Counted from the stretch's first letter, positions 1,442-13,527 are shown. The stretch is 21,378 bases of DNA from a virus (UHGV-0079970), one strand, 5' to 3'. The notes: generated by a model not told the origin, from the letters alone. Numbers and translations are program-made.

Positions 1442-1444
1442 GTC

Positions 1445-1472
1445 CATAAGAAAGCCCCTCCGGAGAGGGGCT
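1445..1472 (-). terminator. Second hairpin, possible minus-strand terminator (weak T tail)
   Basis: 8-bp stem AGCCCCTC (1453-1460) / GAGGGGCT (1465-1472), 4-nt loop; on the minus strand followed by TTTCTTAT. Together with the 1413-1441 hairpin forms a back-to-back pair. Confidence 0.3.
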
Positions 1473-1708
1473 GGAGAGTGGCGCTATGTGCCATTGCATG
1501 GTGCCGGGTGCCTCCCGGTGAATTCAGTACCAGCACCTGAATCCGCGATTATCCCATATACCTACTCGCTGATTGCCCCTCCGCACAGGGGGATTCACCA
1601 TGCCAGTTTCTTTTAACAAACTCCCCGCAAACCAGACAACAGTCAACCGCCTAAATTGTGAGACATTTAAAAAAAAGGCCCACAAAAGCGAGCCAGGGAA
1701 AATAAGTG

Positions 1709-1785
1709 TGGCGCGTTGTACTGGATTCGAACCAGTGACCGATTGCTTAGAAGGCAATTGCTCTGTCCGGCTGAGCTAACAACGC
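1709..1785 (-). tRNA. tRNA-Arg (anticodon TCT)
   Basis: Minus-strand 77 nt, GCGTTGTTAGCTCAGCCGGACAGAGCAATTGCCTTCTAAGCAATCGGTCACTGGTTCGAATCCAGTACAACGCGCCA: 7-bp acceptor stem, D arm, anticodon loop CTTCTAA, T arm GGTTCGAAT, encoded CCA. Confidence 0.85.
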
Positions 1786-1798
1786 ATGATGCAGATAA

Positions 1799-1875
1799 TG
1801 GACCGCCATCGGGGACTTGAACCCCGCGCAACCAGCTTCGAAGGCTGGCGCTCTTTCCTGATGAGCTAATGGCGG
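1799..1875 (-). tRNA. tRNA-Arg (anticodon TCG)
   Basis: Minus-strand 77 nt, CCGCCATTAGCTCATCAGGAAAGAGCGCCAGCCTTCGAAGCTGGTTGCGCGGGGTTCAAGTCCCCGATGGCGGTCCA: cloverleaf with C1-G72 acceptor pair, anticodon loop CTTCGAA, T loop TTCAAGT, encoded CCA. Confidence 0.75.
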
Positions 1876-1882
1876 TATGTGA

Positions 1883-1958
1883 TGGTGGCCCTTGCTGGAT
1901 TTGAACCAGCGACCTGGCGATTATGAGTCGCTCGCTCTCACCACTGAGCTAAAGGGCC
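1883..1958 (-). tRNA. tRNA with CAT anticodon, tRNA-Ile2 (lysidine) type / Met
   Basis: Minus-strand 76 nt, GGCCCTTTAGCTCAGTGGTGAGAGCGAGCGACTCATAATCGCCAGGTCGCTGGTTCAAATCCAGCAAGGGCCACCA; anticodon loop CTCATAA; closely resembles E. coli tRNA-Ile2 as I recall it. Confidence 0.8.
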
Positions 1959-7206: not shown

Positions 7207-8603
7207 AAGAAACGCTCCATCTTACTGCTGTCAGTTCGTTTGTTGCTGTATCTGCGCGGCTGGGGCTGTTGCATTGGTGTGGAAAGAACCCGGGCACTCT
7301 CCTGGTCCACAGGCAGAAAATGTCCGTTATGAAAACGCCGGTAAATGGTCCCGAGCGTGCCATTACGCTGTTTCGTGATGTTGATTTCTGCTATGCCTCT
7401 GGCCTGAGTTTCCGGGTTGTATACCTCCTCCCTGTAAAGCATCAGAATGATGTCGGCATCCGCCTCGATTTCCCCGGAGTTTTTCAGGTCCGAGTTCATT
7501 GGGCGTTTATTGGGTCTGGATTCCACGCCACGGGAGAGCTGGCTCAGAGCAATCAGCGGAAAACCGCCGGATTTTGCCAGGCTTTTAAGTCCCTTTGAGA
7601 TTTCCCCCACAGCAAGGTCGTGACGCCCCGTGCTGCGGGTTTTAATCAGGCCGAGGTAATCGACCACAACCAGCGCCGTTTCCGGATGCTTCATCCGGTG
7701 GTGCTTCGTGGTTGCACATATCTCATCAATGGTCAGGTTTGCCTGGTCCACCATCCAGATATTACGCCCCGTCATTCGTCCCACGCCCTGCGAGAAACGC
7801 GCCCAGTCTTCATCTTCAAAACGGGCAACAGACTTAAGACGGGATACCGGCATTCCACCGGCAGCAGACACCATACGTTCACCAATCTGGATGTTCGCCA
7901 TCTCCATGGTGAACAGAAGCACGCCATGCCCCTGCTCAGTCACCTTGTCGATGATGTCCAGCGCAAGTTCGGTTTTCCCCATCGAAGGACGGGCGGCAAT
8001 GAATACCAGGTCTCCGGGCTCCATACCGCCCGTTTTTGCGTCCAGTTCATCAATACCGGTCATCAGCGCCCTGGATTTCTCCAGTCCCTGATTGCGGCAT
8101 TCAACACGGTCGACCACTTCCGGAAGGACATCATCAATGTGAACCGGCTGAATGACGCCCTTTCCGGTCGACAGTGAGGCCATCATGTTCTGCGCATCCT
8201 TCAGGGCATCCTCGGCTGCTTCACAGGTATACGCATCACGTAAATTCTGTAATGCTTCAGTCAGTGTTTTTTCTGCATCACGCAGTGCGGCATTGCGCCG
8301 CAACGCTGCGACATAGTGCTCCAGTGAAGACTTCACCCAGGTTTTGCGTCCGGTGTCGGTAATCACCGGGGCAAGTTCCGGCATCTCATTGCACAGCAGT
8401 ACGGGGTCAATGACGCCGGATATGCGAGCCTGTCTGCAAATCCCCGCGTAAATATCCCGGTACTGACGCACAAAAAATACATCCGCCGGAAGTGTGGCCA
8501 GAATATCCATCACTTCCGGATCGGCCCCACGCAGAAAAAACGCACCGATGACAGCGCCTTCCAGGTCATCGTTACGCCATGCCGGGGTGTTCTGGCTGGT
8601 CAT
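7203..8603 (-). CDS. Replicative DNA helicase, DnaB family (phage-encoded)
   Basis: 466-aa ORF with Walker A ARPSMGKT, Walker B-like LVVVDYLGL and a RecA-like C-terminal domain; follows the DnaC-like gene with overlapping stop/start. Confidence 0.9.
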   Translation of the reverse strand: MTSQNTPAWRNDDLEGAVIGAFFLRGADPEVMDILATLPADVFFVRQYRDIYAGICRQARISGVIDPVLLCNEMPELAPVITDTGRKTWVKSSLEHYVAALRRNAALRDAEKTLTEALQNLRDAYTCEAAEDALKDAQNMMASLSTGKGVIQPVHIDDVLPEVVDRVECRNQGLEKSRALMTGIDELDAKTGGMEPGDLVFIAARPSMGKTELALDIIDKVTEQGHGVLLFTMEMANIQIGERMVSAAGGMPVSRLKSVARFEDEDWARFSQGVGRMTGRNIWMVDQANLTIDEICATTKHHRMKHPETALVVVDYLGLIKTRSTGRHDLAVGEISKGLKSLAKSGGFPLIALSQLSRGVESRPNKRPMNSDLKNSGEIEADADIILMLYREEVYNPETQARGIAEINITKQRNGTLGTIYRRFHNGHFLPVDQESARVLSTPMQQPQPRRYSNKRTDSSKMERFF

Positions 8604-9499
8604 GCGGCAACACCTCCGATACGAGAACGGTAGCTGGGCCAGTTAAACGACAACCAGTTGCGCCCGCCATCGGTGATCCTGTCGGCAATCCGGGGACTGA
8701 TGAACGCCCACAATTCTTCCGGTGAAAGGTTGCTGATCAGGATAGTTGGCAAAATACCCTCATACCGGGCATTGATAATTTCCTGCAAAATGGCCATTTC
8801 AGCCGCACTGCCAAACTGAACGCCGACTTCGTCGACAATCAGCAAATCCAGTGACGCATAATGCTCAATGACGTCATCCGCTGTTTTTTCACTGTCATTC
8901 CGCCAGCAGTTTTTCACAGCCCGGGTAAGGCGCATCACGTCGGTGATCTCCACACTGGCCAGATAGTTACGGATGATGTGTTTTGCCATTGATACCGCCA
9001 GATGATTTTTCCCGGTACCGCAACTGCCGGTCATAACAAGACTGGTACCGTTCTCCAGCATATCTGGCCAGTTCTCCGCATAGCGGCGACAGGCCGCAAG
9101 ATTTCTGGCTGCGTCAGGATTAACCTCCAGATAATTATCAAACTCGCAGTCCCGAAAACGCAGAGCAATTCCGGCGTTATCAGTCAGTTCTTCCGCCTTG
9201 AGGGACGACAGTTCCATGGTCAAATCACTGGCCTCAGCGATCAAGCAGTCAGGGCAGCATGAAATTTTTTCTCTGTCCTCGCCATTACGATCGATCCACA
9301 CCAGTATATGCGTACGATATTTACCGTGTTTTTCGCAATATCCGCGACCTTCACGCATCAGGCAGGAACGATAAGGCCATGGCTTTTCGCCCTTCTGAGC
9401 AAATGCAATCTCTGCCCGTAACTCATCCATTTCTGCCCGTAACTCATCCATTCGCGCCTGTAGTCTTGTTTGTTTCTCACGTTGGTCAATCGTCATCAT
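8600..9499 (-). CDS. DnaC/IstB-like AAA+ helicase loader
   Basis: Walker A GSCGTGKNHLA, Walker B LLIVDEVG. Probable start is ATG at 9499 (GAGG 8 nt upstream) rather than the GTG at 9508 used in the ORF track. Confidence 0.85.
   Translation of the reverse strand: MMTIDQREKQTRLQARMDELRAEMDELRAEIAFAQKGEKPWPYRSCLMREGRGYCEKHGKYRTHILVWIDRNGEDREKISCCPDCLIAEASDLTMELSSLKAEELTDNAGIALRFRDCEFDNYLEVNPDAARNLAACRRYAENWPDMLENGTSLVMTGSCGTGKNHLAVSMAKHIIRNYLASVEITDVMRLTRAVKNCWRNDSEKTADDVIEHYASLDLLIVDEVGVQFGSAAEMAILQEIINARYEGILPTILISNLSPEELWAFISPRIADRITDGGRNWLSFNWPSYRSRIGGVAA
9411..9452. repeat. Perfect 21-bp tandem duplication inside the DnaC-like gene
   Basis: tctgcccgtaactcatccatt occurs twice in tandem (9411-9431, 9432-9452), encoding MDELRAE-MDELRAE in frame on the minus strand. 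Confidence 0.9.
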
Positions 9500-10496: not shown

Positions 10497-10792
10497 ACAA
10501 CCTCCTTCCGCGGCATGAGAATTGTGTAGCCACGCGCAGGTTGTAGTCTGGCTTTTGCATCAATAGTAAGCGTTGCAATTTTTCGGATATGAAGATAACC
10601 AGCTCTTTCCAGTGCCAGGGTTTCCCTGAATATCGCTTGCTTAGAACAACAGCAGAAATCAGCAAGCACCTGATGATCAATAACTCTCTCGCCTTCACCG
10701 TCTGAAGAACCCGACATCAAAACACGCAACATAATTAGGCGCTGAATCGGGTTATCGAAAGCACATCCGCACACAAACTGAAAACAGTTCAC
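10493..10792 (-). CDS. Hypothetical protein, 99 aa
   Basis: GTG start with GGGAGG 6 nt upstream; stop overlaps the O-like start; part of a chain of coupled genes. Confidence 0.45.
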   Translation of the reverse strand: MNCFQFVCGCAFDNPIQRLIMLRVLMSGSSDGEGERVIDHQVLADFCCCSKQAIFRETLALERAGYLHIRKIATLTIDAKARLQPARGYTILMPRKEVV

Positions 10793-11013
10793 GCCACACC
10801 TCCCAGACGCTTAAACATTTTTCCAGACAGAAATACCGCCAGAGGGTAACTGATGGTGTAGCTACGCCCCTGTAGTTCGCACACGACTTTCTGGCTTTCA
10901 GCGTTGACTAGGCAAACCCGCAGAACGTGACCGTTGCTGGTGGCGAACCACTGCCCCACACGGGGGCAACGGTTGTATCGGTGATACAGGGAATTAACGA
11001 TGTGGCGGATCAT
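10789..11013 (-). CDS. Hypothetical protein, 74 aa
   Basis: ATG with GGAGG 7 nt upstream; stop/start overlaps with both neighbours. Confidence 0.45.
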   Translation of the reverse strand: MIRHIVNSLYHRYNRCPRVGQWFATSNGHVLRVCLVNAESQKVVCELQGRSYTISYPLAVFLSGKMFKRLGGVA

Positions 11014-11204
11014 GGACGCACCTCCGCCGTAGTTACGTATTTAACCGGGCTACCTTTCATTGAGATGGTTTCACACATCTCTGCCGCTTTCAGTTCCGCT
11101 GTTTTTCTGGATTTATAGCGACGGTGCCAGACAGATACATCCGTGCGAACTGATACATCGTTTCTGTATTCCGTAGTGGAGATGATGATTTCGTAACTAA
11201 TCAT
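11010..11204 (-). CDS. Hypothetical protein, 64 aa
   Basis: ATG with AAGGAGG 7 nt upstream; ATGA overlaps with both neighbours. Confidence 0.45.
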   Translation of the reverse strand: MISYEIIISTTEYRNDVSVRTDVSVWHRRYKSRKTAELKAAEMCETISMKGSPVKYVTTAEVRP

Positions 11205-12052
11205 GGGCGAACCTCCTTGTCAGAACCATTCAGCCTGGAATCAACAAGTGCAGCGCCAAAAACAGCATCACCAACACGGTCGTACAGTTTGCTAGCCAGC
11301 GGAGATTCAACGGCCTTAAGCATTGGATAAAGCTGGCTTGTCCAGATTTGATGGATTTCACGCAAATGCAGGTATACGCCTCTGGCGTTTCGTGCGACAG
11401 CTGACATATCAGACGCATCGGCACCTGATAAACTCTTCTCCATCAGGTTAAAGGCGTTGATGTATGCCTCTTTGAACTGGGCAGCACGTTTACCAGTGAA
11501 GCCCATGGCAAGAAACGCAAAACCGTCGCGGGTGATTTGGTAACAAGGGAGTTTGCGGCCTGATGCGTCGGTGTATTCACTTAACACAAAATTGTGTTCA
11601 GTAAATTCAGCGGAACATTCGAGGTTTCTAATTCTATCTAAAACCCGCTCATGCCGTTTAGTAAAGTAATTAGCTACTGCAAGAGATGTGGTGACAACGC
11701 GACCATTGATAATCGTGATTTCAGGGTGAGATTGGGTTGGGAGAGTAGTCATGGTGACAGCCCCTATGTTGAATTCAATGAACTCACCACCAAGGCTTTC
11801 CACGACCATATAGGTGGTGAGACGTACAGGGGTGGAAATACCGGTCAACATAGAACCCGGCCCAACCGAAGTTGGCCCTGCACGCCCCACCATAATTTGG
11901 GTGTAACGATGCTCATGACACGAAAAAACCGCATGAGCGCGGTTGTGCTCTATATTGAATTTCGGGTTTCCACGCCCGGCACCCGCTTTATAAGGTGCCT
12001 GAGCAGTGTAACGTCCCGGAATTGCAGAATCAATATGCTGGTGGCGGATCAT
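11201..12052 (-). CDS. Rha-family phage regulatory protein with an N-terminal extension, 283 aa
   Basis: C-terminal half has Rha-like motifs (SLAVANYFTKRHERVLDRIRNL ... ITRDGFAFLAMGFTGKRAAQFKEAYINAFNLME); N-terminal ~100 aa (IDSAIPGRYT..APYKAGAG..IMVGRAG) is paralogous to the next gene. GGGAGG RBS. Confidence 0.6.
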   Translation of the reverse strand: MIRHQHIDSAIPGRYTAQAPYKAGAGRGNPKFNIEHNRAHAVFSCHEHRYTQIMVGRAGPTSVGPGSMLTGISTPVRLTTYMVVESLGGEFIEFNIGAVTMTTLPTQSHPEITIINGRVVTTSLAVANYFTKRHERVLDRIRNLECSAEFTEHNFVLSEYTDASGRKLPCYQITRDGFAFLAMGFTGKRAAQFKEAYINAFNLMEKSLSGADASDMSAVARNARGVYLHLREIHQIWTSQLYPMLKAVESPLASKLYDRVGDAVFGAALVDSRLNGSDKEVRP

Positions 12053-12711
12053 AGGTGCACCTCCCGTTGATTACGACGGAACGCGGAGTGACCCTGGACG
12101 GTTTCAGCCTCATGGAATGCTTCAATACAGCTCTCGTAGTACCGCATTGTGCGCAGACTTAACCCAAGCTGAAGCATCATCAGACCATCAAGGGTGATGT
12201 AATAACCACGCAGGGAGTCACCGTAGATGTGATAAGTACCCGGTATGAAATTGCGGGTAAAAAACTCGCGTGAGCAGTTCAGATACTCGATTTTGTCAAC
12301 GATGTTCTGGTGCATGCGCTTGAAATGGCAGGCAACATGCAGGGAGAAAATAACGGCCTTGCCGTTGACGACTTCGATTTTTAGGAATGGGGAAGTTAGG
12401 ACAGTAGCCATGATGGCAGCCTCCGTTGACAGTGAAAAACTTCCACCACCGGAAACGCCAATTTCACTGGTGGTGAACTGGACGGGGTTGGCGTAACCGG
12501 CGTCAACGGAGACCGGCGCACCTTTCGGTGCCCCCGCCCAGCCCACCATAATCTGGATGTGAGCAAATGCGGACGATAAAAAAGACGCTGGCGCGTCATA
12601 CATCGCCGTTGACAATTTCAGGACGCCAATCCCGGCACCCGCTTTATAAGGTGCGGAGACAGTGTAACGTCCCGAAATTGCAGAATCAATATTTGGTCTT
12701 GAAATGATCAT
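12049..12711 (-). CDS. Paralog of the preceding gene, Rha-like (more diverged), 220 aa
   Basis: Aligns along its length with the 11201-12052 product (MIISRPNIDSAISGRYTVSAPYKAGAG ... IMVGWAG ... FSLHVACHFKRMHQNIVDKIEYL ... ITLDGLMMLQLG). No obvious SD at its ATG. Confidence 0.5.
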   Translation of the reverse strand: MIISRPNIDSAISGRYTVSAPYKAGAGIGVLKLSTAMYDAPASFLSSAFAHIQIMVGWAGAPKGAPVSVDAGYANPVQFTTSEIGVSGGGSFSLSTEAAIMATVLTSPFLKIEVVNGKAVIFSLHVACHFKRMHQNIVDKIEYLNCSREFFTRNFIPGTYHIYGDSLRGYYITLDGLMMLQLGLSLRTMRYYESCIEAFHEAETVQGHSAFRRNQREVHL

Positions 12712-12819
12712 ATAGCTGCTGATATCTTTAGAACTGTTCTTGGATGTTTCGGAGCCGTTTTATGCGAAACAGCTCCCCGTTATTGATGTTGAGTGAGCCG
12801 GGTTACTCCCGGCTTTTTT

Positions 12820-13527
12820 TCACCGCTGCCAACCAATAACCTGAAATAACCCCATTTTCGGGTGATACCAGCGAGTCCCTCGCGGTTCTGCTTCCTCCAT
12901 AACCCGATAAAAAGCAGCCATAAACGGTTCCACAGCAACAATTGCGCGACGTGACAACAATCCGTCCGGCGTCATGAACTCATGTGTGTCTGTAGGAATT
13001 TGATAGGCGTTCACCAGATTGCGGCATTTATCATCTGACAAACCGGTTTTTGCTTTCAGTTGGCGATATCCGGCATAGCCCTCACGAATAGTGCCCTTTT
13101 TAATTTGCTCGACTGTTTCAGCAACGTGGCTGACTTTTTCTTCCACCTGAGTGATCCGTTTCTGTTGGCGAACGGCTTCAAGAGCCATCGCGGCAACCAT
13201 TTCGATTTCGCTCATTGGCTTACGGATCTGTTCTTCCAGTTCGCGCCAGCGATCTACCAGGCGAGCTGTGAATTCAGGACAGAGCTGTGCGACGACAATG
13301 ATGCTGTCGCGCTTACCTCGTTCACCTTCGAATACATACGCGCTAGAAAATCGGCGAGGCCCAAGTGATTGTTTATTCTCAATTTCCACAGTCTGTGGAA
13401 ATTGGATGATTCCCTTTTTAGCCAGTGTTTCAATAGTTCTCTTAACACTATCTGGTCGGCTTCCCACCAGCTCTGCGATCTCAACGCTGGTCATGGATGC
13501 TTTGCCGTTAAAAATTGCGGTGTTCAT
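12820..13527 (-). CDS. Phage regulatory / antirepressor-like protein with N-terminal Rha/AntA-like DNA-binding region, 235 aa
   Basis: N-terminus MTSVEIAELVGSRPDSVKRTIETL resembles the start of Rha/antirepressor domains; AGGAGA RBS 8 nt upstream; first long gene of the rightward-equivalent early operon. Confidence 0.5.
   Translation of the reverse strand: MNTAIFNGKASMTSVEIAELVGSRPDSVKRTIETLAKKGIIQFPQTVEIENKQSLGPRRFSSAYVFEGERGKRDSIIVVAQLCPEFTARLVDRWRELEEQIRKPMSEIEMVAAMALEAVRQQKRITQVEEKVSHVAETVEQIKKGTIREGYAGYRQLKAKTGLSDDKCRNLVNAYQIPTDTHEFMTPDGLLSRRAIVAVEPFMAAFYRVMEEAEPRGTRWYHPKMGLFQVIGWQR

Follow-up and report, generated by a model that had tools for sequence, protein, structure and literature searches.

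The immunity region of phage P4 is laid out as PLE - seqA - CI RNA - seqC, with the nested open reading frames (ORFs) eta and kil; eta is said to start upstream of PLE and to end as kil, and its translation on upstream-promoter transcripts reportedly prevents an immunity-specific Rho-dependent termination (timm). The immI operon of phages P1 and P7 reportedly runs a1 b1 - c4 - a2 b2 - icd - ant1/ant2. Its C4 RNA is processed by RNase P, and small site differences give heteroimmunity, as between P1 and P7. Work on the prophage Gifsy-1 (Hershko-Shalev et al. 2016, PMC4825925) showed that the isrK promoter drives isrK-orf45-anrP, that the read-through RNA is not translated, and that IsrK supplied in trans switches on the translation of orf45 and, by coupling, of anrP; downstream of IsrK, a structural homologue of P4 seqA, a processed RNA (STnc1160) arises. 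Weinberg et al. 2010 defined the C4 and c4-a1b1 motifs, and an IsrK-C4 immunity system has already been noted in the literature in P4, P1, P7, N15, and lambdoid prophages. The subject of the present analysis is a stretch of viral DNA of 21,378 nucleotides (nt), UHGV-0079970, referred to below in its entirety as the window. Two tandem modules on its minus strand, numbered 2 (upstream) and 1 (downstream), constitute, with a probability of roughly 0.8, two IsrK-C4 antisense-RNA immunity cassettes of the P4, P1/P7, and Gifsy-1 type, each driving a Rha-family regulator/antirepressor-like gene.

The window was scanned with Rfam at gathering thresholds and, a second time, permissively. At gathering thresholds, both modules contain a match to isrK (RF01394; 61.6 bits in module 1 and 62.2 bits in module 2, threshold 50) and a match to the C4 antisense RNA (RF01695; 82.4 and 81.4 bits, threshold 45). 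All four matches are full length (model positions 1-77 of 77 for isrK and 1-87 of 87 for C4). An IsrK-like small RNA (sRNA) of about 77 nt is separated by a linker of 24 nt from a C4-like RNA of about 88 nt, and terminator-like hairpins with T-runs (11944-11927 and 12597-12584) end both IsrK-like sRNAs. The minimum-free-energy folds of both C4 copies reproduce the Rfam structure despite a sequence difference of 39%. Folds of the read-through leaders have z-scores of -4.8 and -4.3; the latter, that of module 2, pairs a'/b' with a2/b2 in cis.

Each module carries the two short sites a and b in three versions. In module 2, b1 and b2 read UUGGCGU and b' reads ACGCCAA, while a1, a', and a2 are GUCAACGGCGA, UCUCCGUUGAC, and GUCAACGGAGG, respectively; in module 1, b1 and b2 are GUGGAAA, b' is UUUCCAC, and a1, a', and a2 are UCAAUAUAGAG, GUUCUAUGUUGA, and UCAACAUAGGG. 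Within module 2, hairpin 1 of IsrK is GCACCUUAUAAAGCGGGUGC, b1 forms the loop of hairpin 2, a' the loop of C4, and b' its internal loop; the GGAGG lying under a2 is located 8 nt before the ATG at 12411. AUG codons resembling the start of orf45 are found in both modules in frame with the downstream (cargo) gene, 46-47 codons upstream of it. Cognate pairing within the window reaches 11/11 positions at a2 and 7/7 at b2 in module 2, and 10/11 and 7/7 in module 1, as opposed to 4-6 of 11 (a) and 3-5 of 7 (b) between modules. The two cassettes are thus predicted to be mutually non-cognate and should not cross-react. The parts, their order, their complementarity, and this orthogonality can be demonstrated at the level of the sequence. 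Whole-molecule RNAduplex comparisons of C4 with IsrK and the leaders also scored cognates better, but they ignore intramolecular structure and yield long artefactual duplexes; they were replaced by in-register pair counts on exposed loops and by covariation counts.

Covariation was assessed among relatives. At least 120 IMG/VR contigs contain the 21-nt sequence of hairpin 1 without a mismatch, and 78 distinct modules from about 70 contigs were taken for an alignment (A2), to which the following values refer. The outer stem of C4 is paired in 99.9% of cells, with four pairs changed on both sides, and its second hairpin in 100% (4/5 pairs changed on both sides). The contacts between the separate elements are almost as regular: 98.2% for b1-b' (6/7 pairs changed on both sides), 92.0% for a1-a' (8/11), 95.2% for a'-a2 (7/11), and 95.4% for b'-b2 (4/5). 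For b'-b2, a 3-nt gap placed by MAFFT shifts the GTGGAAA-type b2 by one column, and two outer pairs look broken (79.5% paired); a sliding search recovers 7/7 in every module. When the partner is slid by 1-3 columns, pairing falls to about 40%, and single positions show up to four distinct pair types. The observed covariation score was reached by 0 of 500 shuffles, a control that overstates the significance, as the modules share a common descent and were picked with an exact hairpin pattern. One of the aligned sequences supplied the structure; the slid control and the counts of pair types are independent of both kinship and this derivation.

Among the modules, a' has 11 variants and b' has 6, and these occur in 22 combinations (23 combinations over 128 modules); the two address boxes therefore reassort freely. 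The decoy site a1 differs from the target a2 at the Shine-Dalgarno position (GGCGA versus GGAGG), which leaves a C.U mismatch with a' in 59 of the 78 modules; this site seems to be built to avoid ribosomes, or to hold C4 more weakly than the real target does. The mismatch is recorded at columns 90/185 of the alignment (window positions 12605 and 11950), and the same pattern is present in Gifsy-1 and P4. A natural chimeric module was also encountered (L093:11773-12064, minus strand), in which the a1 of IsrK is TCAATATAGAG, while the C4 loop, GTTCTTTGGTGA, and a2, TCACCAAAGAG, belong to a different type. In this natural recombinant, the decoy no longer matches the antisense RNA, which makes the module a ready-made specificity mutant. 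A wider, tentative proposal, to which less than even odds are given, is that E. coli lambdoid prophages possess a two-part RNA address code with at least 11 a-types, at least 6 b-types, and at least 22 combinations, each of which a cassette spells out in three places (the decoy sRNA, the antisense RNA, and the ribosome-binding site of the mRNA), with two or three orthogonal cassettes stacked and the frame kept open purely for ribosome override. The positions of all parts are listed in Table 1.

Table 1. Positions of the two modules, their parts, and the adjoining features in the window
Feature	Coordinates	Strand	Details
Roi/Ant-like gene	12820..13527	(-)	235 amino acids (aa); without RNA leader, outside the repeat unit
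GC-rich hairpin with T-runs	12795..12815		between the Roi/Ant-like gene and module 2
Long ORF 2	12049..12711	(-)	PGAP 'ash family protein'; leader in frame with cargo 2
Module 2 promoter (predicted)	12661..12689	(-)	-35 TTGATT 12689-12684, 17-nt spacer, -10 TACACT 12666-12661
Module 2 six-nt patch GTCTCC	12655..12660	(-)	between -10 and +1 (+1 = 12654)
IsrK-like sRNA 2	12578..12654	(-)	hairpins 1 and 2; b1 12629-12623, a1 12613-12603, terminator 12597-12578
C4-like RNA 2	12466..12553	(-)	a' loop 12512-12502, b' 12494-12488, orf45-like AUG 12549-12547
Module 2 target region	12420..12461	(-)	b2 12461-12455; a2 12430-12420 over GGAGG Shine-Dalgarno sequence
Cargo gene 2	12049..12411	(-)	short Rha-like, 120 aa, ATG 12411; PHROG 995
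Junction	12041..12064	(-)	GGAGGTG Shine-Dalgarno sequence and ATGA; cargo 2 stop overlaps long ORF 1 start
Long ORF 1	11201..12052	(-)	PGAP 'Rha family phage regulatory protein'; eta-like leader reading fused to cargo 1
Module 1 promoter (predicted)	12005..12033	(-)	-35 TTGATT 12033-12028, -10 TACACT 12010-12005
Module 1 six-nt patch GCTCAG	11999..12004	(-)	between -10 and +1
IsrK-like sRNA 1	11922..11998	(-)	b1 11973-11967, a1 11958-11948, terminator 11944-11923
C4-like RNA 1	11810..11897	(-)	a' loop 11856-11845, b' 11838-11832, orf45-like AUG 11893-11891
Module 1 target region	11762..11803	(-)	b2 11803-11797; a2 11772-11762 overlapping Shine-Dalgarno-like AGGGG
Cargo gene 1	11201..11752	(-)	Rha-family, 183 aa, ATG 11752

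The 5' ends of the two long ORFs share a near-identical stretch (11975-12036 and 12631-12692). An initial sequence-only reading had described it as differing in a 6-nt patch and one substitution, which is exact, and had taken it as a sign of recent duplication or gene conversion. A repeat search returns the direct repeat as 11958-12036 and 12614-12692 (79 nt, 85% identity, spacing 656). With the 6-nt patch masked, a 59-nt pattern has exactly two matches in the window (11975-12033 and 12631-12689) and none in 100 shuffles; the similarity is thus not a short motif shared by chance. Identity between the modules is 28/29 over the block from -35 to -10, 1/6 over the patch, and 24/24 over the following 24 nt, as against just 40-61% in the rest of the leader and the coding sequence. 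The 62-bp block is the promoter together with hairpin 1 of IsrK and the start of hairpin 2, and the patch corresponds to the unconstrained spacer that separates -10 from +1. The promoter is probably of the sigma-70 type (TTGATT-N17-TACACT), a call made from where it lies with respect to the 5' end of the Rfam model, from its invariance among relatives, and from the same -10/N6/+1 geometry in Gifsy-1. Over the 78 modules, the hexamers in TTGATT-N17-TACACT-N6-+1 are invariant and the whole block is invariant or nearly so; the patch is its sole hypervariable spot, with more than 10 variants. Only the 21-nt hairpin was fixed by the search pattern.

As the block consists of a promoter and a first sRNA hairpin, family-wide functional constraint explains its identity. 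Recent tandem duplication or gene conversion, with the block serving mainly as a recombination substrate, would account for the contrast between the block (89-100% identical) and its flanks (40-61%), for the variation in copy number from one to three, and for the reassortment of a and b types, including the chimeric module, for which the conserved blocks are obvious crossover points. This explanation is nevertheless improbable: the promoter part, on which the search pattern did not select, is (nearly) invariant in modules of other phage contigs, so that the identity is family-wide; the block coincides exactly with -35, -10, and hairpin 1; and the lone unconstrained stretch has diverged at 5/6 positions, the opposite of what recent conversion would leave. 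The event postulated by the sequence-only reading is thus not needed, while its expectation of copy-number variation and of recombination among modules is borne out, the latter by the shuffled address types and the chimera. One copy is present in PhiR49_2 and two in phiP27; among the IMG/VR loci, eight have two and one (L019) has three, and the tandem modules have periods of 656 or 863-869 bp. Unequal exchange at the conserved block is plausible.

Long ORF 1 and long ORF 2 encode 283 and 220 aa, respectively, and the stop of the latter is joined to the start of the former by an ATGA overlap. They had been regarded as tandem paralogs with Rha-like C-terminal parts behind an unfamiliar, perhaps undescribed, N-terminal domain. 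The paralogy holds (228 aa aligned at 38% identity, E 8e-40), as do the Rha-type C-terminal parts, which match Phage_pRha of Pfam, that of long ORF 2 at a borderline score. The N-terminus, on the other hand, matches a known family: the translated leaders hit PF10554, Phage_ASH, at E 1.8e-9 (38.4 bits) and 1.2e-18 (67.9 bits; cut-off 26), and the same region coincides with the isrK and C4 RNAs. The 'N-terminal domain' is the conceptual translation of the promoter and of these two RNAs.

The contrary assumption, that the N-terminus of about 100 aa is a genuine 'Ash' protein domain fused to Rha in two-domain paralogs, and that the RNA matches are secondary, can point to PF10554 and to several PHROGs that match the translated leader, as well as to PGAP and other pipelines, which call thousands of such proteins (2760 database proteins match at E <= 1e-5, named 'Rha family', 'peptidase', or 'Ant'). 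The properties of the leader itself speak otherwise. Among 103 unique sequences, the codon-position entropies of the leader are flat (0.573/0.607/0.614), without the third-position excess of substitutions, whereas those of the Rha part bear a coding signature (0.759/0.588/0.982). The positions at which the leader varies belong to RNA duplexes, in which they covary with partners located at a distance of 100-200 nt. In an AlphaFold2 model, which was run on a shallow alignment of 17 sequences and serves as supporting evidence only, residues 1-109 have a predicted local distance difference test (pLDDT) score of 22-33 and no secondary structure, as compared with 73-84 for the Rha domain.

Further arguments come from relatives. 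In Gifsy-1, a stop codon just before the AUG of orf45 interrupts the frame, orf45 is out of frame with anrP, and its sequence is conserved in nucleotides but not in amino acids (PMC4825925). In P4, the 'cI' coding sequence (CDS) 8168-8584 matches Phage_ASH positions 44-107 where the CI RNA lies (E 4e-16); this founding ORF thus overlies an RNA that has been described as the immunity factor. In RefSeq (NC_001609), CDS 8168-8584 of P4, which lies over the CI RNA gene, is still labelled 'cI gene product / transcriptional repressor'. PF10554 appears to be the conceptual translation of IsrK/seqA and C4/CI RNA genes, and a match to Phage_ASH is treated here as a label of the locus and not as evidence of a protein domain. 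A genuine Ash domain is already largely refuted and is very improbable. One protein, P0010 (496 aa, 279 contigs), contains two whole modules in a single ORF, and its second leader is read in another frame, which is likewise difficult to reconcile with such a domain. Gene callers give the same cargo N-termini of 281-287, 341, 383-385, and 478-496 aa (P0001, P0010, P0030), and many of the entries are named 'peptidase' without a visible basis.

The frame of the leader is nevertheless kept open, and this, too, can be claimed for a protein domain. In 90/90 unique modules, the cargo frame runs without a stop for at least 306 nt upstream, through C4, IsrK, and the promoter. Stops are present in both other frames; several a1 variants contain TAG or TGA, never in frame. 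From the start of IsrK to the ATG of the cargo, only distances of 240, 243, or 246 nt occur, and indels therefore preserve the frame. The long ORFs may be eta-like, i.e., selected to be translatable without selection on their amino acid sequence. As regards their starts, no Shine-Dalgarno sequence precedes ATG 12711 of long ORF 2, while long ORF 1 has a strong one with ATGA, a further point in favour of a translated domain. GGAGGTG with ATGA is also present at the second or third positions in 5/9 other tandem arrays; the remaining arrays have a different Shine-Dalgarno sequence with ATGA at the junction, and in every tandem array the one preceding the downstream long ORF is strong. Within the window, a 24-nt junction motif, GGAGGTGC..C.ATGATCCGCCAC, made up of a Shine-Dalgarno sequence and an ATGA stop/start overlap, recurs at three successive gene boundaries (11002-11025, 11193-11216, and 12041-12064). 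MIRH is the N-terminus of both ORFs 11201-12052 and 10789-11013, and overlapping starts and stops chain the genes unbroken from 12411 down to an O-like gene.

In the mechanism proposed for the two cassettes after the experiments on P1, P4, and Gifsy-1, the intrinsic terminator after IsrK would be leaky, and read-through transcripts would give rise to C4. The a'/b' sites of C4 would pair with a2/b2, in cis or in trans, hiding the ribosome-binding site and leaving the Rha gene silent. The short IsrK, bearing b1 and an a1 whose Shine-Dalgarno sequence is disabled (GGCGA for GGAGG), might compete for C4 or remodel the leader and thereby switch the cargo on. With different a/b addresses, each C4 would control its own gene only. 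Ribosomes arriving from upstream, by ATGA coupling and on early-promoter transcripts, could read the leader and melt the RNA structures; by overriding the switch, they would avoid polarity on the downstream replication genes.

The same anatomy could instead serve as a P4-like gate of RNA immunity and transcription termination before the replication genes, with the control of Rha being secondary, and may in that case also protect against superinfecting phages or P4-like satellites with the same address. Within the early operon, the cassettes have cro/roi on one side and the O-like, DnaC-like, and helicase replication genes on the other, in a chain of overlapping starts and stops, which parallels the position of the P4 cassette before alpha. 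The long reading frame that resembles eta stays open, address types are numerous and differ within tandem arrays, and a protective role against satellites has already been suggested for lambdoid prophages in the literature. The position of a2 over the Shine-Dalgarno sequence of the cargo, however, points to translational control, as in P1 and Gifsy-1, and a Rho-dependent terminator is not identifiable by the sequence tools used. Elsewhere in the window, further C4 targets amount to scattered single-site near-matches with G-U pairs, and no paired a and b sites were found. Nor is the difference between neighbouring types significant: 0/10 arrays repeat a type, and a random match is expected at about 8% per pair. 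A role mainly as a gate is rather unlikely, although it uses the same parts and cannot be separated in silico from the cargo-control mechanism.

Several points weigh against the interpretation as two IsrK-C4 cassettes that each control a Rha-type gene. The c4-a1b1 model (RF03163) scores only 23.6 and 23.9 bits over the isrK regions in the permissive scan, below its gathering threshold of 46.7, although the a1 and b1 sites are present by complementarity. The predicted promoters match the consensus at 8/12 positions, for which reason a simple promoter scan does not list them. The kinship of the 78 modules reduces the weight of the shuffle control, as stated above. The open frame shows, at least by its pattern of stops and indels, some translation-related constraint, for which 'pure RNA' is too simple a description. 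The match of cargo 2 to Phage_pRha is borderline (30.0 bits alone and 27.9 bits in the long ORF, cut-off 29.9), the cargo proteins have no similarity to AnrP of Gifsy-1, which has an ORF6N domain, and the role of these Rha proteins as regulators or antirepressor-like factors is putative. So are the transcription start, the leakiness of the terminator, the processing of C4, and all regulatory outcomes. Finally, the cassettes are not located beside a Q gene, as in Gifsy-1, and the physiological output may differ.

Among the cargo genes, that of module 1 is a clear member of the Rha family (PF09669, Phage_pRha, 106 bits with a cut-off of 29.9; TIGR02681, 100.7 bits with a cut-off of 45.95), while cargo 2 reaches 35.6-37.9 bits with TIGR02681, below the cut-off. 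Related modules carry cargo of 77, 120-122, 181-187, or 397 aa; in view of this variety and of the unrelated AnrP in Gifsy-1, the cassette is a portable regulatory front end, modular as to its cargo. The gene at 12820-13527 had been counted as a third Rha/antirepressor-like gene. The antirepressor part of this assignment is supported by a match to 'anti-repressor Ant' in PHROG and by related phages, where the gene is annotated as Roi or Ant; membership in the Rha family is weak, with 25.6 bits for Phage_pRha (cut-off 29.9), no match in NCBIfam, and no BLASTP similarity to the module-1 cargo. The hairpin at 12795-12815 is flanked by A- and T-runs and could terminate transcription both ways; should it do so efficiently, transcripts from the early promoter could get as far as the cassettes only by antitermination. 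Farther away, an STnc100 sRNA (1442-1632, minus strand, Rfam 138 bits) adjoins three tRNA genes (1709-1958, minus strand: Met-CAT, Arg-TCG, and Arg-TCT), an arrangement typical of the late-regulatory region of lambdoid prophages and of prophages of the Shiga toxin (Stx) type.

The window is the early region of an E. coli lambdoid prophage. A 2.8-kb stretch of it is 100% identical in at least 25 complete genomes, and at least 80% of this stretch is present in 97 of 5426 genomes; E. coli Ecol_AZ146 and THO-003 are two strains with full identity. Stx-converting phages and phiP27 contain parts of it. The exact hairpin-1 21-mer was found in 2 of 185,579 species-representative genomes (Izhakiella australiensis and Citrobacter braakii; L126 and L127), a count that says little on distribution. 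The sub-family with this hairpin seems largely confined to prophages of the E. coli/Shigella type, with occasional transfers. In pathogenic E. coli, the cassette has a bearing on prophage induction and cross-talk, as it is also found in Stx-converting phages.

If the address code is true, several Rha-type regulators could be controlled independently of one another, or a prophage could be immune to several competing classes of phages or satellites, and the coding frame would be one selected for being translated and not for the encoded product. The modules offer a well-documented natural set of orthogonal RNA-RNA recognition pairs, with a common promoter and scaffold, two short differing addresses, and three-way compensatory changes over 78 variants. 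The consequences for annotation are considerable: thousands of entries named 'ash family protein', 'Rha family transcriptional regulator', 'peptidase', or 'Ant' start with about 100 codons of promoter and two RNAs, and the translated RNA leader appears to underlie one Pfam family and several PHROGs. Translation of the actual cargo most likely begins at the internal ATG or at the AUG within C4. The open frame of a leader that otherwise resembles non-coding sequence represents an unexplained yet precedented constraint.

Among the described systems, Gifsy-1 has the same leader (isrK 79 bits, C4 69 bits, and c4-a1b1 48.1 bits in Rfam) directly upstream of anrP. The promoter of its isrK, TTGACA-N18-TATATT-N6-+1, shares the -10/N6/+1 geometry, its b1/b' pair, UUGGCG / CGCCAA, is that of module 2, and an AUG at the 5' end of C4 opens a frame leading into the cargo. 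In Gifsy-1, however, orf45 is separate, comprises 45 codons in another frame, and is ATGA-coupled to the cargo; a stop precedes it, and there is no long Ash-type ORF, whereas the orf45-like AUG is in frame with the cargo here. The cargo there is the ORF6N protein AnrP instead of Rha, and the locus, a single copy, lies beside antQ in the late region. An isrJ gene (Rfam 100 bits) is situated directly downstream of anrP in Gifsy-1 (L124, 33406-33480, minus strand); isrJ has no Rfam match anywhere in the window, the stretches downstream of the two cargo genes included.

With P1 and P7 (Rfam clan CL00128), the cassettes would share an antisense RNA made from its target's own transcript, two short sites repeated upstream and downstream of it, and a downstream pair of sites that blocks the ribosome-binding site and turns an antirepressor-type gene off. 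A P1-like phage, RCS47, was found by a translated search with the leader. The window differs from P1 and P7 in the absence of an icd-like gene, in a Rha cargo in place of P1 Ant, in the score of the c4-a1b1 model (only 24 bits), and in the location of the upstream sites within a terminated sRNA, IsrK.

P4 has isrK (60.8 bits) at seqA, C4 (74.9 bits) at CI, and c4-a1b1 (44.1 bits), i.e., the same two Rfam families, isrK then C4, in the same order; its a1 ends in ...GGCGA, and its a2 lies at the Shine-Dalgarno sequence. A long ORF, 8168-8812, passes through the promoter, seqA, and CI and shares its frame with a short gene downstream. It can start at any of three successive Met codons, for a length of 199, 198, or 197 aa, and its last 65 aa begin with MATTLTPSHPE, which aligns with the cargo starts of the window, MATVLTSP and MTTLPTQSHPE. 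In both elements the cassette precedes replication genes (in P4, the primase gene alpha). The differences concern the cargo (Rha-family proteins of 120 or 183 aa here, the 65-aa Kil in P4), the spacing between IsrK and C4 (24 nt versus 108 nt), the host element, which is here a lambdoid prophage with a LexA-type repressor, and the doubling of the cassette with different addresses. The locus is a duplicated case of the known IsrK-C4/P4-type RNA immunity family with Rha-type cargo, and not a new kind of system.

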